From an uncultured Candidatus Saccharibacteria bacterium (GTDB lineage: Bacteria > Patescibacteriota > Saccharimonadia > Saccharimonadales > JAGQNK01): a stretch of DNA of 64,000 bases. The notes beneath the pieces are model-generated. The model was not told the DNA's origin. It searched no databases and was given only the letters and a program-made list of their open reading frames with translations. Positions 171-20,425 of this stretch are shown piece by piece. Every line of letters starts with the position of its first letter. Position 1 is the first letter of the stretch. The stretch spans positions 41,687 through 105,686 of the forward strand of contig CAZWRG010000001.1 in the NCBI GenBank assembly GCA_964636355.1. The letters are read 5' to 3'. The position numbers and the translations under genes were made by a program.

Positions 171-998
171 CTAGATGATCAAGCCTAAATACCAGTCAAT
201 AAGCTGTCCGCCAAACAGAAATACGATAACTGTCGCGGCTAGTAAGAACGGTCCAAAAGGCAGCCTCGACGATAAATCAAGCGATTTTTTACGCAACAGC
301 GGCACGGCGGCAATAGTTCCCATAACAGAGGCTAGAAAAATAATCAGAATACTTTTTATAGGGTCGGCTATTAAAATTCCAATGACAAACCCTAGTTTTA
401 CATCGCCGCCGCCAATCCATTTGCCGTCCGAGATTTTAAATAGAGCATAAAACAACCCGCCGATTGCCAAAAAACCGCCGATCACACCAGAAACAACTCC
501 CAGAAGATCTCCAGTGGCTAGGACCCTTAAAGCCTGATACAAAATTGCCAAGCCAATCAGTGGAAAAACAATTTTATCCGGCAGCAACATCCAGCGAAAG
601 TCGTAGACCGCCAGCGCCATAAAAGCAACTACAAACACCAGCCATAACCCGAATTGGAAGATAGAATATGGAAAGTGGAAGATTGGGAAATAGGCATAAG
701 ACAATACAAACAAACCGGCTGTAATTAGCTCCACAACCGGATATTGCCAACTGATTGGTTTTTTGCAGTATCGGCACTTGCCCGCTAAACTTAACCAACT
801 TATTACCGGCAACAGATCATACCAAGCCAACGGATGCTTACAATTAACACACATTGACCGACCACGAGCAATAGACAATGCTTGTTTTTGCTTTTTAGAA
901 AGCTTTTTAGCGGTCTCCTGCTGACGCAATCGCCAAACTGCAGCATTAACAAAACTCCCCCACGCCAGTCCAAGTAATGCCAGAATAAAGATAACCAT
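171..998 (-). CDS. pilD: Prepilin peptidase (A24 family, PilD)
   Basis: 275 aa polytopic membrane protein. N-terminal Cys-rich zinc-binding region (CVNCKHPL...CRYCKK), typical of PilD/A24 peptidases. Lies in the T4P locus. Confidence 0.85.
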   Translation of the reverse strand: MVIFILALLGLAWGSFVNAAVWRLRQQETAKKLSKKQKQALSIARGRSMCVNCKHPLAWYDLLPVISWLSLAGKCRYCKKPISWQYPVVELITAGLFVLSYAYFPIFHFPYSIFQFGLWLVFVVAFMALAVYDFRWMLLPDKIVFPLIGLAILYQALRVLATGDLLGVVSGVIGGFLAIGGLFYALFKISDGKWIGGGDVKLGFVIGILIADPIKSILIIFLASVMGTIAAVPLLRKKSLDLSSRLPFGPFLLAATVIVFLFGGQLIDWYLGLII

Positions 999-1013
999 TA
1001 TTCCTCATATAAT

Positions 1014-1048
1014 AACAGAACAGCCCTTGAATAAGAGCTGTTCTGTTT
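1014..1048 (-). terminator. Hairpin between pilA and pilD; candidate partial terminator or attenuator.
   Basis: Perfect 11-bp inverted repeat AACAGAACAGC ... GCTGTTCTGTT with a 12-nt loop, directly 3' of the pilin stop codon. Followed by AUUAUAU on the minus-strand transcript. Confidence 0.4.
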
Positions 1049-1079
1049 AATTGTTTGGTCTAAAAAATTCAGCTGCTGC

Positions 1080-1568
1080 TTAAGTTGCCTGGCATTGCTT
1101 AGTGCCAATCTCTAGGGTATATAGAGCAACTACACTCCTTGCACTTGCCCCTTGAGTAGTAGCGTTACCGGTTGTTCCGTCACACCTTGCACCCGATCTA
1201 AGCACTACTGTATCAGTGGTCGTGTTATTTGCTGCTGCATTCTGATCCCATGAAATTGACGTACCGGCTGCCTTACAATAATAACCGCCTGGTGCGCTCA
1301 CTGGCTGTGTATTATTTCCGCCACTTATTGCCATTTCCCCAAAACAAACAGCATTAGTTGGAAGCTGCCCATTGTTATTGGTTGAATATTCAGTTACTAT
1401 GCTGAGTAATTTACCAACATCATCACGGCGTTGGGTGTTGCGGCTGTTTCGCTGCAAGGCTGGTACAGCCAGGAAGACGATTAGCATGATTAGACCGGCA
1501 ATGGCCAGTACGATTAGAACTTCGATGATGGTAAAGCCCTTTTGTTGTTTGCTTAGTTTTTTGTTCAT
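1080..1568 (-). CDS. pilA: Type IV major pilin (prepilin with N-terminal methylation motif)
   Basis: N-terminus MNKKLSKQQKGFTIIEVLIVLAIAGLIM matches the G/FTxIE class III signal plus hydrophobic alpha1 helix. 162 aa with C-terminal cysteines. Confidence 0.8.
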   Translation of the reverse strand: MNKKLSKQQKGFTIIEVLIVLAIAGLIMLIVFLAVPALQRNSRNTQRRDDVGKLLSIVTEYSTNNNGQLPTNAVCFGEMAISGGNNTQPVSAPGGYYCKAAGTSISWDQNAAANNTTTDTVVLRSGARCDGTTGNATTQGASARSVVALYTLEIGTKQCQAT

Positions 1569-1716
1569 AGTGTTTTATGCCCCCTTGGAACACTATTAAA
1601 TATTACTTATGAACTAATGATAATCCGTTGCCTCTAAAAGCACAAGCATTTTGTTATAAAACAGAGGAAAAACGGTGGAAAACTTTTGAGCTTTGGCCTG
1701 CTAATAGTTTCTGATG

Positions 1717-2943
1717 TTAAATACTTATGCCCTGTCCGGCCAGGCTATAAACCGGCAGTAACACTGCAGCCACGATGATAAAGGCGAATATTCCCAGCAA
1801 AACCATCATAATTGGCTCGATTACTGTAGAAATTGTTTTTATCTGGTTGTCTACTTCTTTTTCGTAGTAATCGGCAATTTTGTTCATCATTTCCTCGATT
1901 GCACCAGATTGTTCGCCAATCCTAAGCATTTCTGGGACCAGACTTAGGAAATGCGGGTCATCGGTGATCGAATCAGATAGCGCCTTACCGCCTTTGACTT
2001 TCTCAATCGCTGCGTGAAGCGATTTTTCGATATGCATGTTATCAATTGCATCTGAGGTAATTTCCAGCATTTGAATCAGCGGCACACCGCTAGCTACCAA
2101 AGTTGTGCCGGTTCTGGCAAACCTAGCCATATACATTTTCATAAACAGTGGCCCAACAAGCGGCGCCTTCATCTTAAATTTATCAATATAGCGCTTACCG
2201 CCCAGCGTCCGCGCCCATCGACTAATAAAGAATCCGCCCACAATCACTAGAATCAGCAGAATATACCAATAGTTGGTTATCAGAGCTGATATGGCCAATA
2301 AGAATCTGGTGACTAGCGGCAACTGCGCGCCACTGCCAAGCCCTTCGTATAATTCCTCCACCTGAGGCATAACTTTTACCAACATAAAACCGACTACCGC
2401 GCCCATGACAACCAAAACGATGATTGGATAAACCATCGCGCCGCGCACCTTGCTGATAAGTTCGGCATCTTTTTCTTGCTGATCAGCTAATCGGATTAAG
2501 GCCTTATCGAGTGTTCCGGAGGTTTCCCCGGCAGCAATCAGGCTGACATAAACCCGATTAAATACCAGCGGGTATTTTCCTAGCGCCACTGAAAGCGCCG
2601 AACCAGCCTCAATATCAGTGATTACCTGATAAATAATAACCTTGAAAGCTTTGTTCTGGGTCTGACTGGCCACCGAACGCAGCGATTGGACCAGCGGCAA
2701 ACCGGCGTTTATCAGAGTGGAAAGTTGTCTAGAGAATAAGATTTTGTCTTTGGCACTGATTCGGTTCCGGAACTTTTCAATTGGATTACTGGTCGCGCCG
2801 GCGCCGATTGGCTTGATTTCCAGGGGTGCTAAACCTTGTTCATGTAAACGCTTGGCAGCCGCTTGTTCGCTGGCGGCTTGAATCTCAGACGTAACCTTTT
2901 TACCGGTAGCTGTATCACGCGCAGTGTACTTATAGGTTAACAT
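1717..2943 (-). CDS. pilC: Type IV pilus platform protein PilC (GspF family)
   Basis: 408 aa with two T2SS-F-like repeats and 3 TM segments. Positioned next to pilT and pilB. Confidence 0.85.
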   Translation of the reverse strand: MLTYKYTARDTATGKKVTSEIQAASEQAAAKRLHEQGLAPLEIKPIGAGATSNPIEKFRNRISAKDKILFSRQLSTLINAGLPLVQSLRSVASQTQNKAFKVIIYQVITDIEAGSALSVALGKYPLVFNRVYVSLIAAGETSGTLDKALIRLADQQEKDAELISKVRGAMVYPIIVLVVMGAVVGFMLVKVMPQVEELYEGLGSGAQLPLVTRFLLAISALITNYWYILLILVIVGGFFISRWARTLGGKRYIDKFKMKAPLVGPLFMKMYMARFARTGTTLVASGVPLIQMLEITSDAIDNMHIEKSLHAAIEKVKGGKALSDSITDDPHFLSLVPEMLRIGEQSGAIEEMMNKIADYYEKEVDNQIKTISTVIEPIMMVLLGIFAFIIVAAVLLPVYSLAGQGISI

Positions 2944-2961
2944 TTTGGAATCTCCAAAATG
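2941..2961 (-). promoter_or_regulatory. Inverted repeat covering the pilC Shine-Dalgarno sequence and start codon
   Basis: Plus strand reads CATTTTGGA ATC TCCAAAATG. On the mRNA this gives a 9-bp perfect stem with a 3-nt loop. The stem includes the GGAG ribosome-binding site and the AUG of pilC. Confidence 0.35.
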
Positions 2962-3013
2962 TTAACAGTCACTAGTCGATTGTCGCTAGTTATTAGGGAG
3001 ATGTTGTCTGTCA

Positions 3014-3047
3014 GTGACTGGTGACTGGTGACTGGTGACTGGTGACT
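3014..3047. repeat. Heptanucleotide tandem repeat (GTGACTG) x ~4.9
   Basis: Read directly: GTGACTG GTGACTG GTGACTG GTGACTG GTGACT. It lies in the 114-nt spacer between the pilT stop and the pilC start. Confidence 0.9.
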
Positions 3048-3057
3048 ATTTTTCATC

Positions 3058-4161
3058 CTAGCCTCTCATTAATCGATCAAGCTCATCAATATCAACGGCG
3101 ATCATTCTAGCCTCGTCATAGGTAATTGTACCGTTATGGATCATCGAAACTAGCGTCTTGTCCATCGATTGCATGCCAAATTCAGCGCCAGTTTGAATAA
3201 CCGCCTCTAGCTGATGACTCTTGCCTTCGCGGATAATGTTACGCACTGCTGGTGTAGCCACCAGGATTTCAGCCGCTGCCACTCGGCCGCCGCCAATTGT
3301 TGGCACCAGCCTTTGGGCACAAATCGCTACTAAAATATTTGATAACTGAGCCCGAATTTGCGGTTGCTGATGCGGCGGGAAAACGTCGATCATACGATCA
3401 ATACTTTGCGAAGCTGAGTTAGTGTGCAGCGTAGCAAACACTAAGTGTCCGGTTTCGGCGATAGTAATAGCCGCCGCGATAGTTTCAAGATCACGCATCT
3501 CACCAATCAATACAACGTCAGGGTCCTGCCTCAAGCTGCTGCGCAGTGCCGCTGAGAACGAATAAGTATCGTAGTGAACTTCACGCTGTACAATGACTGA
3601 TTTTTTAGAGGTGTGAGTAAACTCGATGGGGTCTTCGATGGTAACAATATGAGCCGCTCGCTCCATGTTTATTTTATTAATTAACGCCGCTAAAGTGGTT
3701 GATTTACCAGAGCCGGTTGGCCCGGTTACCAGCACCAAACCTCTCGGATAATCAGCAAATTTATTGACTACCGGCGGCAAACCGAGTTGCTCGATAGTCA
3801 GCATTTCATTCGGAATCAAACGCAGAGCAGCCGCTAAGTTGCCGCGCTCATGAAAAGCGTTTACTCGAAAACGCCCCAGATCACCAAAGGCAAAGCTAAA
3901 ATCAAACTCTTTGTCTTTTAATAGAATTTGTTTCTGATCTTCGTCTAAAATTGCAAAAATCAGCGCTTCAACTGCTTCTTCAGTTAAAACTTCTGTTCCG
4001 GAAGCCGGAGCCAAAGTTCCGTCAACTCGGATCATTGGCGGTAAGCCAACTTGAATGTGAAGGTCGGAGGCCTTCTTTTTTATAACTTCTTCGAGGAGAA
4101 TCTCGATGCGAGGCTGTGCTTGCATATCCACCCTTTTCTCACGCGCTGTCCGCGGCAGCAA
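3058..4161 (-). CDS. pilT: Twitching-motility ATPase PilT
   Basis: 367 aa. Walker A motif GPTGSGKST. PilT-length hexameric secretion ATPase lacking the long N-terminal domain of PilB. Confidence 0.85.
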   Translation of the reverse strand: MLPRTAREKRVDMQAQPRIEILLEEVIKKKASDLHIQVGLPPMIRVDGTLAPASGTEVLTEEAVEALIFAILDEDQKQILLKDKEFDFSFAFGDLGRFRVNAFHERGNLAAALRLIPNEMLTIEQLGLPPVVNKFADYPRGLVLVTGPTGSGKSTTLAALINKINMERAAHIVTIEDPIEFTHTSKKSVIVQREVHYDTYSFSAALRSSLRQDPDVVLIGEMRDLETIAAAITIAETGHLVFATLHTNSASQSIDRMIDVFPPHQQPQIRAQLSNILVAICAQRLVPTIGGGRVAAAEILVATPAVRNIIREGKSHQLEAVIQTGAEFGMQSMDKTLVSMIHNGTITYDEARMIAVDIDELDRLMRG

Positions 4162-5929
4162 CGCGATTTACTTCTGTTAATGTTGTATAGCCTGCCAAGG
4201 CTTTCAGATATCCATCTTCTCTCATGCTGATCATACCTTCGGCGGATGCTACTTTTTGTATTTCCGCGCTTGTTGATCGTTTTAAGATTAGATCTTGGAC
4301 TGCCTGAGTTACTTCAAAGACTTCATACAAGCCAAGTCTACCCTTATAACCGCCTGGAGACGAAGGACTATCTATGCCCTTATATAAAGTATAAGCGCTT
4401 TGGCCTCTTAGTGGCAAGTTCTGATATCCCAAGTCTTTAGAAACCGCCTCTACATCTTCTGGTTTTTCAGGCAATAAATGACCGACTGTGGCGTTAATCG
4501 CCTCTGTTTCCGCCGCGTCACTTTGATACGGTTCTTTATCTTTTTCATTTATTCTACGAACCAGTCGCTGACCAATAACCGTCCGGACGGTGCTGGCAAT
4601 CAGAAACGGCTCAATGCCCATATCTAAAAGTCGCGGCAAAATTCCCGCCGCTGAGTTGGTGTGCAGCGTACTAAACACTAGGTGACCGGTTAAAGCCGCC
4701 TGCACGCCGAGCTGAGCGGTCTCTTTGTCACGAATCTCACCAACCATCACCACGTCTGGATCTTGACGAAGAATAGATCTCAGCCCCGAGGCAAAAGTTA
4801 ACCCTACATCGGCATTAACCTGAATTTGATTGATTCCGGCAACTTTGTATTCGACCGGGTCTTCGAGCGTCACAATATTTATTGACTCGTCTTTTATCTC
4901 TTGAAGCAGCGCGTACATCGAAGTTGATTTACCAGAGCCGGTTGGTCCAGAGGTCAAAATCATACCGTTGGAATTGGTCAAACCGTGTCTAATCAGTCTC
5001 AGAGCCCGGCCACGATAACCCATATCTTCTAATTTCAAACTGGTTCCGGACTTATCCAATAACCTGATGACCACTTGCTCACCCCAAACTACTGGAGAAA
5101 TCGCGATACGTAGATCGATATCCCGGCCATCAACATGAATCGTAAACTGGCCGTCCTGGGGGATGCGATGTTCATCGATCTTCAGATTGGCCAAAATTTT
5201 AATACGCGACACCAGCGGCGGCTCGGTAGCCTTTGGTAATTTCATGATTTCTCGCAACACACCATCAATCCGGCAACGAATCTTTAACTCGTTCTCCAGA
5301 GGTTCAATGTGAATATCGCTGGCCCGGTTCTTAGCGGCGTACTCCAAAATCGCTGAAAGCGCCTTGCTGATCGGTGAATCCTGGACGACATTTTGAATAT
5401 CAACCTTACCAGTGTCTTTTTTCTTGGTCAGCTCCTCAACATCCTTGGCGTTTTCTAAAACATCGGTCATTTCCTGGCCGATAGTCGCGCCATCATATTG
5501 ACTTAGAACTTCTCTAATTCCCTCTTCGCTGGCCGCGTAAACTTTAAGCGGCCGACCGATTTTGTTAGACAAGAAATCAACTGCCTGAACGTTATTAGCA
5601 TCGAGCATCGCGACCACTAAGCGGCGCTGCATTTCACCAAGCGGCACCGCCATGTAGCGCTCGGCAACTTCCTTTGGCAGCAGTGATAGAACCTGCGGCT
5701 CAATCTTGGCATTGGTCAAATTGACATACGGTAATTTGGTTACATGGGCGATGGTTTTAGTGAGTTGCTCATTAGAAATATGACCTTCGCTGATAAGCAG
5801 GCTAAAAAATGGCAATTTTTCCTGATCAGCTTTTTGCTTAACGGCTTTTAATTTTTCAGTCGTAATTAACTTCTCAGCTACCAGCTTGTCTTCGACTTCT
5901 TTCTGGTTTTCTGCCGATAAAACACTCAT
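4139..5929 (-). CDS. pilB: Type IV pilus assembly ATPase PilB (GspE family)
   Basis: 596 aa. Long N-terminal GSPII-N-like region. Walker A motif GPTGSGKST. C-terminal ATPase core. Confidence 0.85.
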   Translation of the reverse strand: MSVLSAENQKEVEDKLVAEKLITTEKLKAVKQKADQEKLPFFSLLISEGHISNEQLTKTIAHVTKLPYVNLTNAKIEPQVLSLLPKEVAERYMAVPLGEMQRRLVVAMLDANNVQAVDFLSNKIGRPLKVYAASEEGIREVLSQYDGATIGQEMTDVLENAKDVEELTKKKDTGKVDIQNVVQDSPISKALSAILEYAAKNRASDIHIEPLENELKIRCRIDGVLREIMKLPKATEPPLVSRIKILANLKIDEHRIPQDGQFTIHVDGRDIDLRIAISPVVWGEQVVIRLLDKSGTSLKLEDMGYRGRALRLIRHGLTNSNGMILTSGPTGSGKSTSMYALLQEIKDESINIVTLEDPVEYKVAGINQIQVNADVGLTFASGLRSILRQDPDVVMVGEIRDKETAQLGVQAALTGHLVFSTLHTNSAAGILPRLLDMGIEPFLIASTVRTVIGQRLVRRINEKDKEPYQSDAAETEAINATVGHLLPEKPEDVEAVSKDLGYQNLPLRGQSAYTLYKGIDSPSSPGGYKGRLGLYEVFEVTQAVQDLILKRSTSAEIQKVASAEGMISMREDGYLKALAGYTTLTEVNRVAAADSA

Positions 5930-5979
5930 AAACTATCCCTCTTTCGCTGTTTGGTCGCCCGGCACACGCTAGATCTCCC

Positions 5980-6225
5980 TTAATTGGCAGATTTTATCGG
6001 TGTATCGTTTCGGTCGTCGCCGATTCGAATCAACTGGGTAGGATTAATTGAATTTCCGTTAAAATACTCTTTGCTGGGCTCGTTGAAATCAGCAGTGATC
6101 GGCTCAACTTTAGCGGCTTTTTCGTTTTTCTCTGGTGATGAAATGAAATTATTAGAGATAAAGAACGACAAAACTCCGCTAATAAATACAATGATAATAA
6201 TTAGTGCGATGTCTTTTTGTTTCAC
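5980..6225 (-). CDS. Small N-terminally membrane-anchored protein in the T4P operon
   Basis: 81 aa with a single N-terminal TM segment. Has a 4-nt ATGA overlap with the upstream pilO-like gene, which suggests translational coupling. Confidence 0.35.
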   Translation of the reverse strand: MKQKDIALIIIIVFISGVLSFFISNNFISSPEKNEKAAKVEPITADFNEPSKEYFNGNSINPTQLIRIGDDRNDTPIKSAN

Positions 6226-6956
6226 TGTACGACCTCTTCAGTTATGTTTAAGGTTTTTTCCGGCTGGAAGTAGGTTTTACCATTTATACTGATCTCGACC
6301 CCGCTACCTTCTAACGCTGTAAGTGTCAGACTTTGAACATACATCGGTCTAATCGACTGCTTGAACACATCAAGCAAGTCTACAATTGAGCGATACGAGC
6401 CGCTGGCGCCAACTGTAAATGGCATATCTACCGAACTGCCAACCGTAGTTGGCTGAGTGGTTTGAGCATTTGGGGTGGCGCCAAGGGCAGCCAAACCATC
6501 CGCTGAACCCGACCCGTTTTGGGCGGCTTCGTTATCAACACCGCTGATATTGGTAATTGTATAACTTCGCTCCGCTAAAACTTTTTCTAAACTAGAGGTT
6601 AAGCCCGGAAAATCGTACTTACTAGGCAGTGCGTCAAGCACAATCTTGGCATTGTCGCCATCACGACTACCGTTTCCGGAGCTGCTGCCGTCGATTATAT
6701 TGCTCGGTCGGCTGACAAATTCTGTATAAGCGGTCTTCAGGGAATCAACTGCCTCAATGTTACTTTGAAGTTGATTACGAGCCTGCTCCTGGGCAGCAAT
6801 AACCCGCGCCTGATAACCGCGCCGGGCAATCAACGATCGTGAAGCAACCAGTGAAAAAACAGTCAAAAACGCGGCGATCGCCACAGTAATCACAATCATC
6901 GAATTAGCCTTATCAATCTGGAGTTGTTTGGTAGATATCCGCATCGATTTAGCCAT
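6222..6956 (-). CDS. PilO-like T4P alignment protein
   Basis: 244 aa with an N-terminal TM segment and a coiled-coil region. It follows pilN in the operon, the position usually held by PilO. Sequence similarity was not verified. Confidence 0.5.
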   Translation of the reverse strand: MAKSMRISTKQLQIDKANSMIVITVAIAAFLTVFSLVASRSLIARRGYQARVIAAQEQARNQLQSNIEAVDSLKTAYTEFVSRPSNIIDGSSSGNGSRDGDNAKIVLDALPSKYDFPGLTSSLEKVLAERSYTITNISGVDNEAAQNGSGSADGLAALGATPNAQTTQPTTVGSSVDMPFTVGASGSYRSIVDLLDVFKQSIRPMYVQSLTLTALEGSGVEISINGKTYFQPEKTLNITEEVVQ

Positions 6957-6959
6957 AAT

Positions 6960-7655
6960 TTACCTCGCCTCGCCTTCTGAATTGTCTTGCATGAATATAT
7001 CTTGGTCTGGTTTTTCCGTGCTCGACCTGGTTGTAACTGTCTTTGGAACCTCTAATTGTGGTTTCTGGGTGCTGGTAAATATCACCGGATCATAAGCTAG
7101 GGTAATTTGGTAAGTCGCTGGCCAGTCATTGTCTGCCTGGTCGCTCAAGCTGAAAGATGCCAACACCACCTGAGAAAAAGCATTGGCTGTCTGGTCGTCG
7201 GTTTTATATTTAGTGAACTTCAGAGTATCAACAAACTGGTTAACTGCTTTTAATGACTTGCCGGAACCATTGAAAGTCATGGTCCGAGCTTCAAAATCTA
7301 TATTGAGACTCGATACTGTGGTGTCTGTCGGTACTAATTGCGGCAAATAATCACCTAGTCGCTCGGCAGCCGGCTTATTTTCATGCAAGGAGTTAAGGCT
7401 TCCTAGCTGATTTTGAACTGTTAAGATTTTATTTATTTCTGGCTCGCTCTGAAGCTGCCTGCTCATACTGTCAATATCGGCCCGCAGGTTTTTCATATGG
7501 TTTTTTTGCAAAATATTAACCCCAACAAACAGAGCTATCATTATCACCAAAGATCCGCCGGCGATAATCGAAGCCGCCAGCATGACCAATCGCTTAGTGC
7601 GCCTAGCTTTGAGATATTCGATTTTTACATCTGGCAGCAGGTTAAACTGAATCAT
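6960..7655 (-). CDS. pilN: PilN-like T4P alignment protein
   Basis: 231 aa. N-terminus MIQFNLLPDVKIEYLKARR carries the characteristic NLLP motif, followed by a TM helix. GGAGG Shine-Dalgarno sequence upstream. Confidence 0.65.
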   Translation of the reverse strand: MIQFNLLPDVKIEYLKARRTKRLVMLAASIIAGGSLVIMIALFVGVNILQKNHMKNLRADIDSMSRQLQSEPEINKILTVQNQLGSLNSLHENKPAAERLGDYLPQLVPTDTTVSSLNIDFEARTMTFNGSGKSLKAVNQFVDTLKFTKYKTDDQTANAFSQVVLASFSLSDQADNDWPATYQITLAYDPVIFTSTQKPQLEVPKTVTTRSSTEKPDQDIFMQDNSEGEAR

Positions 7656-7768
7656 GAAACGCCTCCGGCATTACGAGCCAAAAGCGAAACGCATAAAGCA
7701 GCAAGTAGCGACCGAAAATCAGTCTTTGGCACTTTATGAACTTTGAACTTTGTGACTTTATAACTCAT

Positions 7769-8809
7769 CTATTCGATCCTCTCCGCTAGCCCGGCAGCTA
7801 CTCCAAACTGGTTAGAAACTGCCAATAGTTCATTTTGCTTATCAGCCGCGAAGCTGGTGTTTCGCCAGGCATTGCCAATCTCGACATTAACCCCAAATTT
7901 ATTAGCTAGATACAACGGGAATTCAGGCAATGACGAAGCGCCACCAGTTACAATAATTCTCTCTACCTTAGCGTCACCATAGCGAGCCTGGAAGAATTTT
8001 ATTGATTTCTCGGCCTCGCCAGCCAGCAGCTCGATAGTGTTAATAATTCCCTGGTAAATCTGGCCTTCCAGCTTTTCTTTATTCAGACCAAACTTAAACA
8101 CAAACTGTTCAGCTTGGTTTTGATCAATATTTAGATTCTGCATAGCCGCGCGAACAATTGTCTCCGATCCAGTCGGGATTGACCGTGTTAAACGCGGAGC
8201 ACCGTTCATGGCAATTACAAGATCAGTGGTCTTATAACCAATATCGAGAACCATTTGCGGCGCTGTGGCGTCTGGAGCCAACATTGCCCTGGTTAGTGCC
8301 AGATTATCCGGTTCAAAAGCAATTACATTGAGCCCAATTGACTCAAGCATATCCAGCCGTGACTCAATAAAATCATTAGGAACACTGGTCAGCAAAACTT
8401 CAACCTTGCCGCTGTCTTTTGGTGAATCACCAATAACTGCCCAGTCAATTTTAGAGGTTTCTGGCGGCGTCGGGATCAAAGAATCTGCCTGGTAATTGAT
8501 AGATTTGGTCATTTCATCCGGTGACAGCCTGTCAATATCAACTACAGTAGTAAAAACTCTTTGCGACGGCAGGCCAACCGCCACGTTTCGTGAAGTCACT
8601 CTAGCGTCAGCAATCAACCCAGCCACTGCTTGAGCTAGTTTTTGCTGGTCAGCTTTAGCATCGCTAAGAGCAATCTGCTGGTCAATCGGCGCATAAGCAT
8701 ACCTAGACAAAGCCTTAACCGGACCGCTGCCCTTAAGATCTACAAGCCTGATGGCTGTTGTGCCAATATCCAAACCAAAAAAATCAGAAACACCACTTAA
8801 TATGCTCAT
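7769..8809 (-). CDS. pilM: PilM (actin-like ATPase of the T4P inner-membrane complex)
   Basis: 346 aa. Actin/FtsA-like fold signature GLDIGTTAIRL at the N-terminus. Confidence 0.8.
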   Translation of the reverse strand: MSILSGVSDFFGLDIGTTAIRLVDLKGSGPVKALSRYAYAPIDQQIALSDAKADQQKLAQAVAGLIADARVTSRNVAVGLPSQRVFTTVVDIDRLSPDEMTKSINYQADSLIPTPPETSKIDWAVIGDSPKDSGKVEVLLTSVPNDFIESRLDMLESIGLNVIAFEPDNLALTRAMLAPDATAPQMVLDIGYKTTDLVIAMNGAPRLTRSIPTGSETIVRAAMQNLNIDQNQAEQFVFKFGLNKEKLEGQIYQGIINTIELLAGEAEKSIKFFQARYGDAKVERIIVTGGASSLPEFPLYLANKFGVNVEIGNAWRNTSFAADKQNELLAVSNQFGVAAGLAERIE

Positions 8810-8997
8810 ATTTTTTGGCTCCTGATTGATTTCTGTTTTAGCGTTGAGATTTGGTTCATATTGCCCACATTTTCTTACAGTTTTTGCTGCGCTAAGACCA
8901 TTTTTAGTTTGAATTTTGGCGCAACAATCCTATTTAACTTAAGTATACCATAAGCTTTTTGATTAAAAACAACTTTAATAACCCTGTGGAAATCTAA

Positions 8998-11259
8998 TTA
9001 TAGAACTGGCGGTAAAGTGCTGAACGAAGCCGCGCCACCCCGCCCGCCTGAACCAGACCTCAACCACAACTCAGGTGTATAGATAAATACCTCCGCCGGA
9101 TCACCGCCAGCTTGGTAATTTTCATTAGTCGTTGCATTGCCGACTGTACCAGGCGTCCTGGAGAACTTTATCTGATCAGCCACCACGGCTCCGTAAACCG
9201 TCAATTTGTTATTACACATACCATTCCTTAGCAAAGGACCATTTGGCGGAAGTGGCCGGTTTACATACCTACCACAAGTATAGAATCTTCCCGTTGGATC
9301 AGCCCTATCCTCATCTCTTATTGCAACGAATAGGCCACTTATCTCTGAAACTGAACCTCTAATATATATATTTCCCTTAACAATTAGCCTGAACTGAGGG
9401 ATCTGATCAATGTTGCTATACATGCCCCCGGCATAGGTTATATTGTCTTCGATTATTACATCCCCTTTTATATATTTAGTCTCAGTCTGACCCATACCTA
9501 AGTTTCTACCGAATAGCCGCTGACTTCCCTCGGGATTATTGGGAGCTGTTGACCAGTAGTTAGGTCCGCAAGATAGTGCTGCCTGCTCTAAATTACCACC
9601 GTACTCAACTGATTCTGGCAGATTGGCAAAGCTTAGTCCTTTAGGCACATTCCTAAACTGCGCCGAAGCAAATCCGGTTATCTCGCCGAGAGCAAAAACT
9701 GCTAATTGCGCCCCGGCTCCGGAGTAGCTCGAGCTACCGTTGCTGCGGCCCCTGATAAATGCACTTTCGTTGACACTACAAGCTCCGTCTGAACCAGTGG
9801 CCGACATCCCCGCCAAAACATCCCCGCCATAAACCTTATGATACGGGAGAGTAGAAATATCTACCTCTTCACCCTCAGCACACAACACAGATCTATTAGT
9901 GATGGTACCTCCAGAGCCAGGATTCCATATCCTTATCCTGTATCTTATATGATAACTATCCGAACTGTTTATAAGCAAATTCTCAAATACACTCTCTGTA
10001 CCCCAAGCTGGCGCTAAACTTCTTGCACTAGTCACTGGAAATCCTGGCAGTGGATTATTTCCTTGTGAGTCTGATGAAATATTCAATACGATGTCGTATC
10101 TTAAATCCCTGGCTCTCCCCTGTGTACCAAAATTCTCAAGGTTAAGTCTGGCAGTTAGGTTAAATTGCTCACCTGGCTCTGGAGTGCCGACGTCAATATC
10201 ATATCCGCCGCAAGCCACGTTAGCACAAGCTGGTAGTGTCACATTATCATGGTGAGTAGTACCTAAAATTAATACCCGATATCCTTCGTCATAAACTGTA
10301 AAGTACTTTCTAACATCAAACTCAAACACATATCCATGCCATCTTCCTGCAGGATTAGTAGATGGTAGGTTTGCCAGCATTCGCTCAACCTCTACATACT
10401 GCCCATTAGGATTCCGTCTTTGAAGGACAACATTTTTAGGACTTGGGTCTCCCATTATGCGTGCACCGCCACGAATGATTCCACTATCACAGGTTCCACC
10501 TGCACTGATAAATATGGAAGTGCCCACATTTATTCTTATAGTTCTATATATTGTATTTTCTGGGCAGTTCGTACCACTTAGACCATTTGATGCAATCGCA
10601 CCACCATCAACACACCTATAGATGCCTCCTTCATATCTATGAACCATTCTATATTTATAGGCAACCTGGATGGTATGAGTCTGACCTGGAGCAAGACCGG
10701 ATAACCCAGATAGTCTGAAGACCTGAAATGCTGGGCCGAACCCGCTCACGACATATCTTTGATTATAAAAATGTGAGGGTCCGTAATCCAAGGTTACGTC
10801 ATAAGGGAAAGGTGCTGTCGTAGTGCCCGCTACTGCTCCAATAGATACACCCGGGGTTGAAGCCGTAAGGCTAACTGTATTAGTCCTTGTCTCTTGAATC
10901 GATTTGTCTACTATATTACCGCTTGAATCTATATTGGAATTGCAGTGCCTTGAAAGTGAGTTGATCATAAGATCAACTGATTCCGTACCTGCCTCAACAT
11001 TTATTTCTTGAACCCAGTTAGCGCCTCTCTGCGACAGCCAAACATCTTGGCCATGTTTGTGAATAGGGCTACTATTATCGATTCGGCAGAGATTCGCATT
11101 TGGATCGCCTGGCCTAACAATAAAATCGGGAACAGTATCGGTATTTTCCTCAATAGCACTGGCTTGTGCAGGTAGACCAAATATGAACAAACCGGTCAAC
11201 AGCGCAGCCAGCACCAAGCATTTTGTTTTAGTTTGTGGGTTACTAATGCTCATAATCAA
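8998..11259 (-). CDS. Large secreted Cys-containing protein of unknown function at the head of the T4P operon; candidate pilus-associated adhesin.
   Basis: 753 aa. Cleavable signal peptide (...LPAQASA/IEE). Many Cys residues, Gly/Asn/Ser-rich, no TM segment. 4-nt overlap with the upstream 176-aa gene. No recognisable domain by eye. Confidence 0.6.
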   Translation of the reverse strand: MIMSISNPQTKTKCLVLAALLTGLFIFGLPAQASAIEENTDTVPDFIVRPGDPNANLCRIDNSSPIHKHGQDVWLSQRGANWVQEINVEAGTESVDLMINSLSRHCNSNIDSSGNIVDKSIQETRTNTVSLTASTPGVSIGAVAGTTTAPFPYDVTLDYGPSHFYNQRYVVSGFGPAFQVFRLSGLSGLAPGQTHTIQVAYKYRMVHRYEGGIYRCVDGGAIASNGLSGTNCPENTIYRTIRINVGTSIFISAGGTCDSGIIRGGARIMGDPSPKNVVLQRRNPNGQYVEVERMLANLPSTNPAGRWHGYVFEFDVRKYFTVYDEGYRVLILGTTHHDNVTLPACANVACGGYDIDVGTPEPGEQFNLTARLNLENFGTQGRARDLRYDIVLNISSDSQGNNPLPGFPVTSARSLAPAWGTESVFENLLINSSDSYHIRYRIRIWNPGSGGTITNRSVLCAEGEEVDISTLPYHKVYGGDVLAGMSATGSDGACSVNESAFIRGRSNGSSSYSGAGAQLAVFALGEITGFASAQFRNVPKGLSFANLPESVEYGGNLEQAALSCGPNYWSTAPNNPEGSQRLFGRNLGMGQTETKYIKGDVIIEDNITYAGGMYSNIDQIPQFRLIVKGNIYIRGSVSEISGLFVAIRDEDRADPTGRFYTCGRYVNRPLPPNGPLLRNGMCNNKLTVYGAVVADQIKFSRTPGTVGNATTNENYQAGGDPAEVFIYTPELWLRSGSGGRGGAASFSTLPPVL

Positions 11260-11786
11260 TCAAAGTAAATCGTATTATTTTTAACTTCTTCTGTTCTCTC
11301 CCTTAGCCTATCTATATCGTCAGACAAATCCTTAATGTCAGCCGAACGGTATCTGTAAACCGGCGGAAAGCCCTGGCTCTCATCATATACTTCAGCCAAG
11401 ATATTATAATTACTCTCGCTATCAGACAGATTTCCAGTATTCACACTATAAATAGCTACTGGGTACATACAAGCAACATCGGTTTCGTACTTGTCGAACT
11501 GTTTTATTTTATCTACTTGCTCTTTTAATTTGTCCTTTTCTAGAGGCATAAGATATTTTGCTACCTCATTTTGAACGTCTACTCCGCAAACAACCTCGTC
11601 TTTTTCGCTAACAAATAAACCGTTCTTATACAGAGCAAAACCAACCGCGGGAATAACTAAAATTAAACCCATTCCGACCAGTAATATACCTCGCCGATTT
11701 AGCCTGCGTTTAGTGTTATTAGAAGCAGAATCTATAGGCTTATCAGGTTTTTTATCAGGAGTTTTGCGTAATTTTATAGATTTCAT
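11256..11786 (-). CDS. Membrane-anchored protein: basic N-terminus, one TM segment, extracytoplasmic domain with 3 Cys
   Basis: 176 aa. First gene of the operon. Translationally coupled to the 753-aa gene by an ATGA overlap. Confidence 0.5.
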   Translation of the reverse strand: MKSIKLRKTPDKKPDKPIDSASNNTKRRLNRRGILLVGMGLILVIPAVGFALYKNGLFVSEKDEVVCGVDVQNEVAKYLMPLEKDKLKEQVDKIKQFDKYETDVACMYPVAIYSVNTGNLSDSESNYNILAEVYDESQGFPPVYRYRSADIKDLSDDIDRLRERTEEVKNNTIYFD

Positions 11787-11878
11787 AGCATTAGCACTTT
11801 GGTATTAATCATAAACCAATTAACGACTAAATAAAAGCCCGGAAGCCCAAGCAGTGGGCTAGACTAGTGTCTCAAAAA

Positions 11879-11907
11879 TTGAGAATCTACTCTACCTCTG
11901 TTATAAT
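11879..11907 (+). promoter_or_regulatory. Sigma70-type promoter for ychF
   Basis: TTGAGA, 17-nt spacer, TATAAT. The ATG lies 11 nt downstream, giving a very short leader. Confidence 0.5.
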
Positions 11908-11918
11908 TACATTTAACT

Positions 11919-13007
11919 ATGGCGAGTTTATCTATTGCGATTGTGGGGTTGCCGAATGTTGGCAAGTCAACGCTTTTTAACGCCCTGACCGACAATAATA
12001 TTTTGGCGGCTAACTATCCTTTTGCAACGATCGAGCCAAACACCGGGATTGTGCCAGTGCCGGACGAACGTCTCAGCAAATTGGCTGAAATTTATGGATC
12101 AAGTAAAATTCTGCCAGCCACAGTTACTTTTGTGGACATTGCCGGACTGGTTGAAGGCGCCAGCCAAGGCGAAGGCTTAGGCAATCAGTTCTTGAGTCAC
12201 ATTAGAAGCTGCAATGCTATTTGCCAAGTGGTGCGCGCTTTTGAAGACCCCAATGTACTCAGAAGCGATTCCAGCAAAGACCCGCTGCATGACATTGAAA
12301 TTATTAATACCGAACTGACGATTGCCGATCTCCAAACCGTCGAAAAACGGCTGCCAAGAACCCAGAAAGAAGCCCGGGCTAACCCCAAGCTAAAACCCTT
12401 GGCCGAGCTGATAGAAAAAATCAAAAACCAACTAAACCAAGGCCAGCCTCTGTGGAAAAACCCCGAACTCTTAGAGCAATATCAGGAACAAGCCAGCGAC
12501 CTACAGCTCCTCACCGCTAAGCCAATAATATATTTATTCAACTTGGATGATAATCAATTAAACAATGAGTCAAAAAAACAAGAATTGGCCAAACTGGTGG
12601 CGCCGGCTAAGTCAGTGATGGTTAGCGCTAAACTGGAGGATGAACTGCGCGGCCTGGATCAAGATGACCGTCTGGAAATGCTGGAAAGCTACGGCCAGGA
12701 CGAGCCGGGTCTCAACAAAGTTATTCACGCCGCCTATAACACCTTGGGGCTGCAAAGTTACTTAACCGCCGGGCCAAAAGAAGTTCGGGCTTGGACGATT
12801 AAAAAAGGCTCCACTGCCCCGGAGGCCGCCGGCGTAATTCATGGCGACTTCGAAAGAGGCTTTATTGCCGCACAAATTATTGACTACAATGATCTAATAG
12901 AAGCCGGCTCCGAACAAGCCGCCAAAGCCGCCGGCAAAATGCGTACCGAAGGCAAATCCTACATTATGCAGCCAAACGATGTAGTTGAGTTCCGGTTCAA
13001 CGTGTAG
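11919..13007 (+). CDS. ychF: Ribosome-binding ATPase YchF (Obg-family GTPase)
   Basis: 362 aa. G1 motif GLPNVGKST. C-terminal TGS-like region. Confidence 0.9.
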   Translation: MASLSIAIVGLPNVGKSTLFNALTDNNILAANYPFATIEPNTGIVPVPDERLSKLAEIYGSSKILPATVTFVDIAGLVEGASQGEGLGNQFLSHIRSCNAICQVVRAFEDPNVLRSDSSKDPLHDIEIINTELTIADLQTVEKRLPRTQKEARANPKLKPLAELIEKIKNQLNQGQPLWKNPELLEQYQEQASDLQLLTAKPIIYLFNLDDNQLNNESKKQELAKLVAPAKSVMVSAKLEDELRGLDQDDRLEMLESYGQDEPGLNKVIHAAYNTLGLQSYLTAGPKEVRAWTIKKGSTAPEAAGVIHGDFERGFIAAQIIDYNDLIEAGSEQAAKAAGKMRTEGKSYIMQPNDVVEFRFNV

Positions 13008-16998: not shown

Positions 16999-17754
16999 AT
17001 GATTACCGAGGCGCGACTTTCTCCAGAGCTGCCAGAGAAGTTCGCCCGTCTTTATGACCCAAGTAGTGGCAAGTTCGAGACTCCACTCGATGTAATTGGA
17101 GTTGCTGATATTGATGCAATTTTTGAGTTAGCGCTTTGGACCTATCCAAATCCAGAAAATCTGCCTGAAATCCTGGTCGGCGAGCGTAACATTCACCACG
17201 TATATTTCACTCAAGCTTGGTGGAAGAATTATGCTGACGCCCACCCCGAGCCCGAAAGACAAATAATTTCCGAGTTTAGAGATGGCGTGCCTCAAAAAGC
17301 CTGCATTCCAATTCCAATTCATGCTTGGATAGAATTTATCATGGAGCCGCCTCCGCCGCCGTCAATTGAAGTAATGGATCGATGCAACGCTTCTTGGGAA
17401 GTTGCCTCAATTTTACTTAAAAATGTCATGAAATTTGACGAAGCCAGGCGTAATTATCAATCCAAAAAACACACTAACCGAATTATTTACGGAGATTTTG
17501 AAGGTCTGACCCCAGAATCTGCCAAGCAAGATTTTGAAGTTATGGAGATTTCTAATCAGGAGTATTTATTAAGTGAACTAAACCGTCGACTTAGTGACTG
17601 GAGAGACTCCGCTGGCTTAATTGAGCTGGTACCAAAGGAGTTCAGTTTAATTGAAATGCCCCGATTATCTGAGGTTCGTAGGCTTCAGCGGCGACTGAGC
17701 AAAAAAGGCGCCTTGCTGCCTAAAGGACTGGTTGAACTTGAGCTCGTAGCCTAA
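16999..17754 (+). CDS. Hypothetical protein (orphan), opposite in orientation to its neighbours
   Basis: 251-aa uninterrupted ORF with a PPPPP stretch. No recognisable domain. It converges on ftsK with a 4-nt stop overlap. Confidence 0.45.
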   Translation: MITEARLSPELPEKFARLYDPSSGKFETPLDVIGVADIDAIFELALWTYPNPENLPEILVGERNIHHVYFTQAWWKNYADAHPEPERQIISEFRDGVPQKACIPIPIHAWIEFIMEPPPPPSIEVMDRCNASWEVASILLKNVMKFDEARRNYQSKKHTNRIIYGDFEGLTPESAKQDFEVMEISNQEYLLSELNRRLSDWRDSAGLIELVPKEFSLIEMPRLSEVRRLQRRLSKKGALLPKGLVELELVA

Positions 17755-19949
17755 GCTTCTTCAGGGAAATTTTCGTCCAGCACTTCATCGGACGATCCCT
17801 CATCAGTTGCGCCGCCAAAAACATCATTAATCGAGCTAACCAGAACTTCTCGCGGTCGATTGCCGTCTGCCTGGCTGATAATACCCTGTTCTTCCATGGT
17901 CTCCATGAACCGTGCGGCCTTACCATAACCAATCCTTAGACGCCTCTGCAGCAGGCTGGTGCTGGCTTTGCCGCCGTCAATCACCACTCCAACAGCTTCT
18001 TTGTACAGCGGATCATCCATGTCGCTGCCGCCCGCATCAGCCACGATACCACCCTTGCCATTTAGCTGAACCGGCTGACTGATGATTTCATCGTTATAAT
18101 CTGGCGGCCGTTGCATACGGATAAAATCAGTGACTTTTAATGTTTCGTTATCGTCAATTAATGCCCCTTGAACGCGTATCGGCTTTGGCATATCCGAGGT
18201 CAGCAGCAACATATCACCTTGGCCAAGCAGCTTCTCAGCGCCGACTTGGTCGATAATCGTCCGTGAATCAACCTGACTCTGAGTCGTAAAAGCAATCCGG
18301 CCCGGCACGTTAGCCTTAATCAGACCGGTAATAACATCTACTGATGGGCGCTGAGTGGCCAAAATCAAATGGATACCAACGGCGCGTGCCTTCTGAGCAA
18401 TGCGGACAATCAACGCCTCAACATCTCGGGCGGCCATCATCATCAGATCGGCTAGCTCATCAATCACCACCACAATGTAGGGCATACCCTCTTCTTTTTT
18501 GAGGGCGTTATATTCCGCAATATTTCGGCGATGAACTTCACTGAGCGCCTTGTATCGCCGCTCCATCTCCGCCACTGTCCACTTAAGGGCGCTTATACAT
18601 TTTTCCGGCTCAGTAATAACTGGCGTTAACAGGTGCGGAATATCGTCATAAGGCTTCAGTTCAACCTGCTTGGGGTCAACCAAAATGAGCTTTAAATCAG
18701 ATGGGCTGTTACGGTACAACAGGCTGGTTAAGATAGTGTTGATCATGACCGATTTACCAGAACCAGTTTGTCCGGCCACCAAAAGGTGCGGCATTTTGGC
18801 CAAATTACCGACCACTGACTGACCGGCAATATCTTTTCCAATCGCAAAGCCAAGCGGACTGTCAACCTCAGCCCACTTCTGGGACTGCAGCAAGCTGCTA
18901 ATCCGCACGGTAGCCGACTTCAGATTAGGCACTTCAATACCAACCGCTCTTTTGCCGGGAATTGGCGCCTCCATACGGATGGAGGTAGCCTCTAGATCAA
19001 GCATCAGGTTGTTTTCCAGCGCCGTTATTTTAGTTAGCCTTACACCTGTCGGTGGCTTGAGAGTATATTGCGTAACCCGAGGACCAATGTTGGCGCCTTC
19101 CATTTCAACCGCAATATTAAAGTTCTCGAAAGTCTCTTTGATGATGCTGGCATTCCCTTCTACATCTCCAGCATTAGCCTTGTCTTGTTTTTGGTTGAGT
19201 AGATTAATCGGCGGAAATTGCCAATCCGGGTCACTAGCAGCCGTTAGGGCAGCATGATCTTCAGCCGGGGCAAGTTTTTTAACAGTATTTTTTAAGTTGG
19301 CCTTTTTAGGTGAAGCAGTATTTTTGCTGTGTTCCACCGGCACGCCTTCGTTTAGGGTAAAAGCACTTTCTGGGGCCCTGGATTTGAGATCCTCCAGATC
19401 AGCTTCCTCAGACTCCGGACGTCGAAAGATTTCAAATAATTTCAAGATAACCTTTGGTGAGATTCCAAAAGTTAAAAAGAATAACAAAATACTTAGCACA
19501 AACAGAAGTATCGAGGCCGGGATTTTATCTAAAATACCAAGCATCAATCCGCCAAGTCCGCCGCCAACCGCTCCGCCATGACCAGCTTCAAACTCTCCAA
19601 AAGTGGTTTTGTTAGCAAAAGCCACATGAAACCAGCCGGCAGACAAAACCAAAAACCCTAGCATGCTCATGAATTTATTGAATGGAATCTGTTTGTCTTC
19701 GCTGGTAAATTTCCAAATTCCAAAAAACACTAAAGCTAGAGGTGTTAAATAAGCTGCCCAACCGAATGCCCAATAAGCGGCCTCAAACATCGAAATCGGT
19801 AACGGGCCACCGGTATTAAAACTGCCGAGCAGCAAGAAAAAGGCCGCAATCATCAGTAAAATTGCTCCGGCTAGTGGCCAAAAACCTGAATGTTCAACTA
19901 CTTCTGGTTGGGTTTTTCTTTTTCTGGTTTGTTTTTTTCGTTTTGCCAT
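17751..19949 (-). CDS. ftsK: DNA translocase FtsK/SpoIIIE
   Basis: 732 aa. Four or five N-terminal TM helices, a linker, a motor domain with Walker A GQTGSGKS, and a C-terminal winged-helix gamma domain. Confidence 0.9.
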   Translation of the reverse strand: MAKRKKQTRKRKTQPEVVEHSGFWPLAGAILLMIAAFFLLLGSFNTGGPLPISMFEAAYWAFGWAAYLTPLALVFFGIWKFTSEDKQIPFNKFMSMLGFLVLSAGWFHVAFANKTTFGEFEAGHGGAVGGGLGGLMLGILDKIPASILLFVLSILLFFLTFGISPKVILKLFEIFRRPESEEADLEDLKSRAPESAFTLNEGVPVEHSKNTASPKKANLKNTVKKLAPAEDHAALTAASDPDWQFPPINLLNQKQDKANAGDVEGNASIIKETFENFNIAVEMEGANIGPRVTQYTLKPPTGVRLTKITALENNLMLDLEATSIRMEAPIPGKRAVGIEVPNLKSATVRISSLLQSQKWAEVDSPLGFAIGKDIAGQSVVGNLAKMPHLLVAGQTGSGKSVMINTILTSLLYRNSPSDLKLILVDPKQVELKPYDDIPHLLTPVITEPEKCISALKWTVAEMERRYKALSEVHRRNIAEYNALKKEEGMPYIVVVIDELADLMMMAARDVEALIVRIAQKARAVGIHLILATQRPSVDVITGLIKANVPGRIAFTTQSQVDSRTIIDQVGAEKLLGQGDMLLLTSDMPKPIRVQGALIDDNETLKVTDFIRMQRPPDYNDEIISQPVQLNGKGGIVADAGGSDMDDPLYKEAVGVVIDGGKASTSLLQRRLRIGYGKAARFMETMEEQGIISQADGNRPREVLVSSINDVFGGATDEGSSDEVLDENFPEEA

Positions 19950-19970
19950 AAGAACTTAATTATATCAGGG

Positions 19971-20240
19971 TTAGTCTGCTGACTCCAAGGGTAAAGGCGC
20001 TGGATCATCCACACCTAGTAAAATTTTAGTCTGTAAAACTAAGTCACTATAATATCTATAGATGCCCATTAATTCTTCCTCATCTAAGCCACCGAAATTA
20101 GCCCCCTCATACTTATAAGCTAAAAGATCATCTAAAGCCTGTTCTCTTTTGTAAATTTGCTCCTCTAACCAAGGATGTCCTGCTGCTTCGCGGACCAAGA
20201 TTTGATTATCTAATTGTGACGAGTCAGGAGAATGTTCCAT
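19971..20240 (-). CDS. Small acidic hypothetical protein, likely translated from a leaderless mRNA
   Basis: The ORF track begins at a TTG that is itself the -35 hexamer. The in-frame ATG at 20240 (MEHSPDSS...) sits about 7 nt after the -10, so a leaderless start is inferred. Function is not recognisable. Confidence 0.4.
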   Translation of the reverse strand: MEHSPDSSQLDNQILVREAAGHPWLEEQIYKREQALDDLLAYKYEGANFGGLDEEELMGIYRYYSDLVLQTKILLGVDDPAPLPLESAD

Positions 20241-20247
20241 AGCCATT

Positions 20248-20276
20248 ATTATAGCAAAAATTACATCATTTGTCAA
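20248..20276 (-). promoter_or_regulatory. Near-consensus sigma70 promoter (TTGACA, 17 nt, TATAAT)
   Basis: Minus strand reads TTGACAAATGATGTAATTTTTGCTATAAT. Both hexamers are perfect and the spacer is exactly 17 nt. Confidence 0.55.
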
Positions 20277-20395
20277 TCCACTTAAGCTCCCGCCTTTTTA
20301 TATAGCACTTTCCGGATTGGCTTGGGAAAGCGCTTTCTAATTTCGGGAGAAGAGCAGCCAAAGACACCGGATTTATTCCGGCGCACCGCTTGGGT

Positions 20396-20418: not shown

Positions 20419-20425
20419 ATTAGAG

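Follow-up and report, generated by a model that had tools for sequence, protein, structure and literature searches.

This study concerns two genes at the head of a type IV pilus (T4P) gene row in an uncultured Candidatus Saccharibacteria bacterium (GenBank assembly GCA_964636355.1, contig CAZWRG010000001.1, positions 41,687 to 105,686), a stretch of 64,000 nucleotides (nt) that was analysed as a whole and is called the window here. One gene encodes a protein of 176 amino acids (aa) and the other a protein of 753 aa, and the pair sits 5' of pilM-N-O-(81 aa)-B-T-C-pilin-pilD on the same strand. An earlier reading of this DNA, made from the letters only (the sequence-only reading), had placed a membrane-anchored protein and a signal-peptide protein at the head of a secretin-less pilus operon, and had proposed the larger protein as a candidate pilus-associated adhesin by analogy with PilY1/PilC. 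The parts of the pair and its connection to the pilus genes, with coordinates in the window, are as follows:

11256..11786, minus strand: open reading frame (ORF) of the 176-aa partner protein, ATG start (ORF call, hydropathy)
8998..11259, minus strand: ORF of the 753-aa large protein (ORF call)
11256..11259, minus strand: start/stop junction TTGA, the TTG start of the 753-aa ORF over the TGA stop of the 176-aa ORF
11155..11259, minus strand: signal peptide, aa 1-35, with a Lys-containing n-region, a hydrophobic core at aa 14-29, and AQASA/IEE
10510..11154, minus strand: N-terminal module, aa 36-250, beta-sandwich domains, present in a minority of the family
9880..10509, minus strand: middle module, aa 251-460, more beta-sandwich domains, the most variable part
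9052..9879, minus strand: family-defining C-terminal domain (C-domain), aa 461-736, predicted all-beta, solenoid-like fold
9001..9051, minus strand: low-confidence linker (aa 737-746) and conserved extreme C-terminus, FSTLPPVL-COOH
8810..8997, minus strand: pilM spacer, 188 nt, with the extended -10-like element TGGTATACT, and AGGAG before the pilM ATG
171..8809, minus strand: T4P gene row overall (Pfam matches; order identical in related loci)

Both head proteins have the topology that had been read from the sequence. The 176-aa protein begins with a Lys/Arg-rich, cytoplasmic tail (aa 1-32), followed by one hydrophobic segment (about aa 31-55, with the transmembrane helix placed at about aa 33-55) and ~120 further residues, and this extracytoplasmic domain contains two conserved cysteines, C67 and C106. 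The 753-aa protein has a single N-terminal hydrophobic segment and then the pattern AQASA/IEE, of the Sec/signal peptidase I type; the cleavage site was placed by the AxA rule, and aa 8-28 are helical in the AlphaFold2 model. Neither protein matched the class III signal (N_methyl), though the pilin of the locus does, and a sortase-type sorting signal was absent, since LPPVL forms the very C-terminus with no hydrophobic helix or basic tail after it. The description of the larger protein as Cys-rich was overstated, as it has 13 cysteines (1.7%), nine of which are kept in the closest homologue. C460, C494, C564, C662 and C682 are fully or almost fully conserved throughout the family, and the conserved cysteines are probable disulfide cysteines. 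The C-domain also carries the conserved motifs PYxxVYGGDV, GAGxQLA, GLTFAN, CxPDY, YVDGDV, IPSFRLIVKGNIYI, GxxYTC, LTVYGA and AExFxxxPExWL, and P751 and L753 of the terminal peptide are invariant. Most invariant residues of the C-domain are Cys, Gly, Pro or Leu, joined by one Arg (R701) and one Glu (E723) but by no acidic cluster, a pattern that suggests a role in scaffolding or binding more than in catalysis.

The sequence-only reading had recognised no domain in the large protein, and neither of the two head proteins matched a Pfam or NCBIfam family (E <= 0.1); the 753-aa protein is nonetheless not an orphan. A word-indexed homology search gave, besides the protein, a single homologue of 830 aa (32% identity, full length), and a 60-sequence profile used in the same kind of search still found just the protein and one homologue. 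Exhaustive HMMER searching with a two-sequence profile recovered 2994 cluster representatives with E <= 1e-3, of which 982 had E <= 1e-30, and nearly all of these matches spanned only the last 290-340 residues. When modules were counted in the best 150 of the 2994 representatives, every one of the 150 had the C-domain, 42 had the N-terminal module, 12 had the middle module, and 145 ended in [LMQV]PP[IVA][LFY] (LPPxL-type); 140 had a hydrophobic N-terminus. Every family-member name that was looked up was "hypothetical protein". Sub-threshold matches to DUF7305 (PF23981), a domain that presumably occurs in PilX-type pilins, were seen in 12 of 67 relatives (best E 1.2e-5), with P0004 scoring 19.4 bits, below the Pfam gathering cut-off of 27 bits, and the window protein did not match DUF7305, so that the relation of the family to this domain appears distant at most. 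We therefore describe a new family, in which a C-domain ending in LPPxL-COOH is encoded next to pilM and behind a coupled upstream gene for a single-pass membrane protein, and the window pair has all of these features.

Some long members (P0033, P0140 and P0138) have SurA_N_3 matches in their N-termini. A SurA_N_3-like N-terminal region was observed in a 1284-aa member (L132, 10001-13855) encoded between the genes for RNase J and FtsK. In the window, just a 101-aa ORF lies between RNase J (20426-22528) and FtsK (17751-19949), at 19950-20425, and this gap is possibly another site at which family members insert.

The full-length protein was modelled with AlphaFold2, using the 60-sequence alignment. 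The model (mean predicted local distance difference test score, pLDDT, of 87; predicted template modelling score, pTM, of 0.58) is entirely beta except for the signal helix, with pLDDT mostly >90 in the N-terminal module. In a Foldseek search of the PDB, the N-terminal two-thirds, the head, matched tandem immunoglobulin (Ig)/MG/FN3-like arrays at E ~1e-6 with low TM-scores, and the matches included complement C3, the adhesin extender region 6xi3, RbmA and Bap. The isolated model of aa 455-753 (pLDDT 86, pTM 0.86) gave no significant relative, with a best E of 0.1 among PDB folds and 0.09 among the viral models of BFVD, and a C-domain profile had zero matches to PDB sequences. The weak Foldseek list for the C-domain consisted solely of beta-solenoids (ice-binding proteins, ComZ, tapirins, MinC and bactofilin), and we take these matches to reflect fold class, not homology. 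The linker and terminal peptide had pLDDT <50 in the isolated-domain model, and in the full-length model the final three residues reach 85 and take part in a beta-bridge. Judged from these models, the C-domain would define a new domain family with a fold not represented among solved structures.

For the partner, a word-indexed search with the 176-aa protein gave a near-identical match only, and its similarity to the 175-aa neighbour in locus L001 was weak in a pairwise comparison (E 2e-7). Iterative searching with jackhmmer, starting from the 176-aa protein, recruited the gene directly 5' of family genes in most loci, including each tandem copy, and a membrane-protein ORF ended at the family-gene start for 81 of 92 evaluable family genes. 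Where no partner was detected by the hidden Markov model (HMM), a single-pass membrane protein of 85-340 aa was usually still present. Tetratricopeptide repeats (TPR) were found by Pfam in 28 of 40 partner proteins, and the partner family profile matched consensus TPR structures with E down to 1e-113; because the tail of the partner is positive-inside, the TPR domain would lie outside the cell. The window protein belongs to a subgroup of eight aligned sequences, all of which have C67 and most of which have a YEQDPNCLY-type motif with the second Cys, and the best PDB match to the ectodomain of this subgroup was the TPR protein NprR, at a weak E of 0.11. The 176-aa protein may be assigned to a divergent, non-TPR-scoring subgroup of a membrane-anchored TPR family.

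A SurA_N/PpiD-like chaperone was also considered as an identity for the 176-aa protein and was rejected, as the partner family is TPR and the partner HMM did not match the SurA_N_3 N-termini. In a search for fusions of the partner with the large protein, one 1352-aa ORF in L099 matched the partner tail and transmembrane region weakly (E 1e-5).

The position of the pair next to pilM was evaluated in two sets of loci. In the first, one genome per species was scanned with a six-sequence C-domain alignment, giving 50 loci, almost all labelled Saccharibacteria or Saccharimonadales, to which L001 was added. A family gene lay directly 5' of pilM and on the same strand in 42 of these 51 loci, and the same pilus row came after it. 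Because this set had been recruited through the cassette itself, a second set was recruited with PilM only: a PilM alignment yielded 80 metagenome loci with 68-82% PilM identity, 52 of which had at least 1.2 kb upstream of pilM. Among these 52, the family gene was directly 5' of pilM in 47 and within ~3.5 kb in 4, and in the remaining locus ychF lay directly 5' of pilM and there was no cassette. The distant 1352-aa member P0140 is likewise encoded directly 5' of pilM, and C-domain identity is ~30-45% across loci that keep the position and orientation next to this gene. The link between the pair and pilM held, in that homologues were not found mostly outside T4P loci, and the cassette adjoins pilM in nearly all of the soil and rhizosphere relatives that were sampled. 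Two contigs carrying a complete Saccharibacteria-type cassette and pilus row are labelled as other organisms, L002 as Candidatus Limnocylindria and L037 as Nevskiaceae; their PilM matches reach E ~1e-170 to 1e-190, and both probably come from Saccharibacteria and were mis-binned or mislabelled.

The arrangement differs in the cultured oral strain S. epibionticum ML1, where ychF (SEML1_0103) is followed immediately by pilM (SEML1_0104) and pilus genes are essential (PMC10633639). The published gene list of pilus locus one of TM7x has 13 locus tags and 12 named genes, which suggests that there is no room for the gene pair there. Since S. epibionticum has essential pilus genes and ychF abuts its pilM, the cassette is an accessory and not a core pilus part.

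Cassettes occur in one to three tandem copies, each copy with its own partner, as in the three pairs of L024. For 16 tandem paralogue pairs, the C-domains had a median identity of 56% and the heads one of 26%, and the head varies between species as well as between paralogues, in contrast to the constant C-domain. On two unrelated contigs, L048 and L056, the paralogues had 100% identity over their final 850-900 nt (L048 9995-10885 and 12623-13513; L056 ~5920-6824 and 8950-9856), covering the whole C-domain, and identity dropped abruptly to chance level (~25% upstream) both 5' of the segment and past the stop codon. Unless it is an assembly artefact, this pattern speaks for recent gene conversion, or recombination, that did not extend beyond the constant domain.

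The two genes of the window had been said to share an ATGA overlap, which is absent: the junction reads TTT GAT TGA TT ATG AGC, so that the overlap is TTGA or, if the alternative ATG start of the 753-aa ORF at 11253..11251 is used, translation would begin 2 nt past the TGA stop. Overlaps of the ATGA/GTGA kind are the usual arrangement among relatives of the window pair, since 81 junctions examined across the family included 33 ATGA and 6 GTGA (39 four-nt overlaps) and 11 one-nt overlaps, and coupling of the genes as a family-wide trait is supported by these junctions. No terminator-like site was detected in the 188-nt spacer before pilM, which is longer than in relatives (median ~67 nt). However, because the spacer holds TGGTATACT, which reads as a TG-extended -10-like element, a single transcript spanning the cassette and pilM is only plausible. 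A 9-bp inverted repeat, UUGUUGCGC ... GCGCAGCAA, was spotted by eye at 8860-8915 on the minus strand, with a loop of ~26 nt and no U-tract; it lies 3' of the -10-like element and therefore in the pilM leader if that promoter is real, and it is possibly a regulatory hairpin.

The remaining genes of the pilus row, together with the left-hand neighbour of the cassette, are as follows:

7769-8809, minus strand: pilM (Pfam PilM_2, 4e-39)
6960-7655, minus strand: pilN (weak PilN match)
6222-6956, minus strand: pilO-like gene, 244 aa
5980-6225, minus strand: 81-aa single-pass membrane protein, between the pilO-like gene and pilB
4139-5929, minus strand: pilB (T2SSE and MshEN)
3058-4161, minus strand: pilT (T2SSE)
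1717-2943, minus strand: pilC (T2SSF)
1080-1568, minus strand: pilin (N_methyl)
171-998, minus strand: pilD (Peptidase A24)
11787-11918: divergent intergenic region between ychF and the 176-aa gene
11919-13007, plus strand: ychF, divergent from the 176-aa gene, a conserved left-hand neighbour of the cassette

The pilus row of the window has no secretin gene, in agreement with the sequence-only reading. The locus of the 830-aa homologue has the order ychF, 175-aa gene, 830-aa gene, pilM-N-O-(83 aa)-B-T-C, and ychF lies divergently 5' of the cassette in many related loci. Practically all related loci encode the 81-aa protein in the same place (phmmer E 1e-11 to 1e-35), and its counterpart in S. 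epibionticum, SEML1_0107 (228 nt), is essential in the published transposon sequencing (Tn-seq) table (PMC10633639); this protein appears to be an unnamed core pilus component. In the divergent intergenic region, a strong promoter-like site for ychF was seen on the plus strand (TTGAGA, a 17-nt spacer and TATAAT with TG; 11879-11907), and a terminator-like hairpin, GCTTGGGCTTCCGGGC then TTTTATTT, at 11837-11852 on the minus strand, ~50 nt 5' of the 176-aa start. No minus-strand gene ends 5' of this hairpin, which could form in a 5' leader or be fortuitous, and an Rfam scan of the window gave no RNA family. The window also encodes two more large proteins that are poorly annotated or unannotated, one of 807 aa (26093-28516, minus strand) with only a weak GDSL-lipase region, and one of 622 aa (50335-52203, plus strand) with no Pfam match.

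Taken together, we favor the interpretation, with a probability of roughly 0.45, that the cassette encodes a modular surface adhesin, linked to the pilus as an accessory, and a membrane protein dedicated to it. The signal peptide, the tandem Ig-like domains, the hypervariable N-terminal part and the constant C-module suit a surface or adhesive role. Under this interpretation, the two genes would form a self-contained, translationally coupled cassette that is an accessory of the Saccharibacteria T4P locus, and the 753-aa protein would be exported by Sec and built of interchangeable parts, with the variable Ig-like beta-sandwich array as its binding head, and the constant beta-solenoid-like C-domain, with the tethered LPPxL-COOH peptide, as a docking module. 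The 176-aa protein would sit in the membrane with a helical TPR-like domain outside the cell, where it would take up, retain or pass on the large protein, perhaps through the C-terminal peptide. TPR domains typically bind extended or C-terminal peptides, and the co-encoded TPR-like protein would for this reason be the most economical docking partner. In this way the head would stay on the cell surface, beside the pilus machine or directly at it, and the cassette would serve as a diversifying surface or host-recognition adhesin that acts together with the retractile pilus.

Several observations weigh against this interpretation. The Ig-like arrays are generic and no proof of adhesion. The 176-aa protein of the window does not score as TPR in Pfam, and when only the ectodomain of its subgroup was compared with the TPR subgroup by hhalign, the match was weak (probability 23%). 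The HMM links among partners ride partly on the N-terminal tail and transmembrane helix, since a VanY and a beta-lactamase in the window also match weakly, and the TPR equivalence of the window partner is therefore argued mainly from position and topology. The promoter-like element in the 188-nt spacer makes co-transcription with pilM less certain, and some paralogues (L015, L019, L041 and L132) lie away from the pilus genes, those of L015 and L019 ~5 kb past pilD and the L132 copy between RNase J and FtsK. Such copies, a possible separate promoter for pilM, and the behavior of the cassette as a mobile or duplicating unit would also be expected of a generic variable surface or S-layer-associated protein, functionally unconnected with the pilus, that came to lie next to pilM through common regulation or at a hot spot of recombination. 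We regard this as very unlikely, since position and orientation are kept over the full range of PilM and C-domain identities given above, spacers are short in relatives, and copies outside the position next to pilM are mostly within ~10 kb of pilus genes. That near-universal adjacency in the clade also fits a structural part that assists the pilus machine where the envelope has one membrane only, such as a collar or conduit through the wall or S-layer, built of the membrane TPR protein and the beta-rich exported protein, which would replace parts of the PilF/PilW-PilQ, TsaP or FimV type found in double-membrane bacteria. A copy lies within ~3.5 kb of pilM in 51 of the 52 PilM-recruited loci, the C-domain is strongly conserved, the row lacks a secretin gene, and TPR proteins are recurrent pilus and secretin assembly factors (PilF/PilW/TadD). 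However, S. epibionticum has no cassette between ychF and pilM despite its essential pilus genes, copy number ranges from 0 to 3 with some paralogues elsewhere, and hypervariable, recombining heads would be unusual for a machine part, and we consider such a role unlikely.

Two further possibilities bear on the C-domain. If the protein were a tip-associated adhesin in the strict PilY1/PilC sense, the C-domain would plug into a minor-pilin tip complex and the head would ride on the fibre. This would agree with a design logic common to PilY1 and the 753-aa protein, with the presence of the pilus-tip pilin ComZ and the tapirins in the weak and non-significant Foldseek list, and with the sub-threshold DUF7305 matches in relatives. 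Nevertheless, the similarities to pilus structures are all non-significant, no beta-propeller, vWA or Neisseria_PilC match was found, and the membrane-anchored partner suggests retention at the membrane over travel on the fibre. In addition, the cassette lies 5' of pilM, and minor pilins in relatives follow pilD at the opposite end of the locus, in a region that would fall beyond the edge of the window. Placement at the pilus tip is, in our estimate, decidedly unlikely. The beta-solenoid character of the weak matches raises the other possibility, a secreted glycan-active enzyme with a C-terminal solenoid lyase or hydrolase acting on host or own wall polymers, and Ig-like domains that serve as carbohydrate-binding modules. 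Polysaccharide lyases and tailspikes are common among beta-helix proteins. Among the essential surface proteins reported in S. epibionticum are ones that bind or degrade glycans (PMC10633639). An enzyme is nevertheless very improbable to us, given that no significant pectate-lyase, glycosidase or tailspike match was obtained in the PDB or BFVD, no Pfam enzyme family was matched, and the invariant residues include just one Arg and one Glu and form no acidic cluster.

Little is settled about how ultrasmall epibionts select their hosts and stay attached to them; T4P are the best-supported player, and recognition molecules are known only tentatively and from oral strains only. If the cassette is an accessory surface adhesin, as we favor, the pair is a good candidate for how Saccharibacteria epibionts recognize surfaces or hosts, and a concrete one, easily located by its adjacency to pilM, that can be deleted, swapped or localized. 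A more specific version of this idea, which we hold to be speculative and unlikely as a whole, is that the C-domain, LPPxL-COOH and the membrane TPR partner form a novel docking system that mounts interchangeable host-recognition heads on or beside the retractile T4P of environmental Saccharibacteria, with recombination restricted to the constant domain swapping heads and setting or shifting host range. If true, this would be a pilus-coupled analogue of receptor-binding-protein exchange in phages.

The closest parallels are found among proteins encoded with other pilus systems. PilY1/PilC, the tip-associated adhesin of Gram-negative type IVa pili, resembles the 753-aa protein in being a Sec-exported non-pilin encoded with pilus genes, with a conserved C-module, a variable N-module and a proposed role in surface or host recognition. 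In contrast, PilY1 has a C-terminal seven-bladed beta-propeller, often with vWA, and is encoded among minor pilins, whereas the 753-aa protein has Ig-like arrays, a solenoid-like C-domain, a dedicated membrane partner and a gene 5' of pilM. No PilY1/Neisseria_PilC propeller was matched in Pfam or NCBIfam, and no propeller was found by Foldseek with the full-length or the C-domain model. The PilY1/PilC analogy of the sequence-only reading did not survive this comparison, and what remains of its adhesin proposal is the synteny with pilM and the adhesin-like architecture.

A second parallel is with the tapirins of Caldicellulosiruptor, non-pilin surface adhesins with a signal peptide, from a single-membrane bacterium, which are encoded next to a T4P locus and have a beta-helix C-terminal domain. 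The tapirins (6n2b, 4wa0) and the 753-aa protein are alike as signal-peptide non-pilins with a beta-rich C-domain, encoded beside a T4P locus, but they have no sequence similarity, and the Foldseek matches were non-significant (E 1.8-3.7, TM about 0.1-0.15); to our knowledge, tapirins have no coupled TPR partner and no LPPxL terminus. ComZ, the Thermus thermophilus competence pilin with an inserted beta-solenoid (6qvi), is likewise a pilus-related protein that carries a solenoid-like module, again with a non-significant match (E 0.15); unlike the 753-aa protein, it is a true pilin with a class III signal.

The partner family resembles PilF/PilW, TadD and FimV, extracytoplasmic TPR proteins that are encoded with pilus genes and act by protein-protein contacts. 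Those proteins are lipoproteins or large proteins that serve outer-membrane secretins, whereas the partner described here is a small, N-in, single-pass protein of a secretin-less organism, paired one-to-one with a secreted protein, and the copy in the window is, unlike them, not detectably TPR. Literature on DUF7305, on pilM with TPR in Saccharibacteria, and on PilY1 in Patescibacteria yielded no description of the cassette, and it is unmentioned in the Saccharibacteria pilus papers and the Tn-seq paper. As a general kind, then, the non-pilin adhesin encoded with T4P is already known from PilY1/PilC and the tapirins, while the family, the fold of its C-domain, the LPPxL terminus, and the membrane TPR partner with recombination confined to the constant domain appear to be undescribed in the libraries and literature that were searched.

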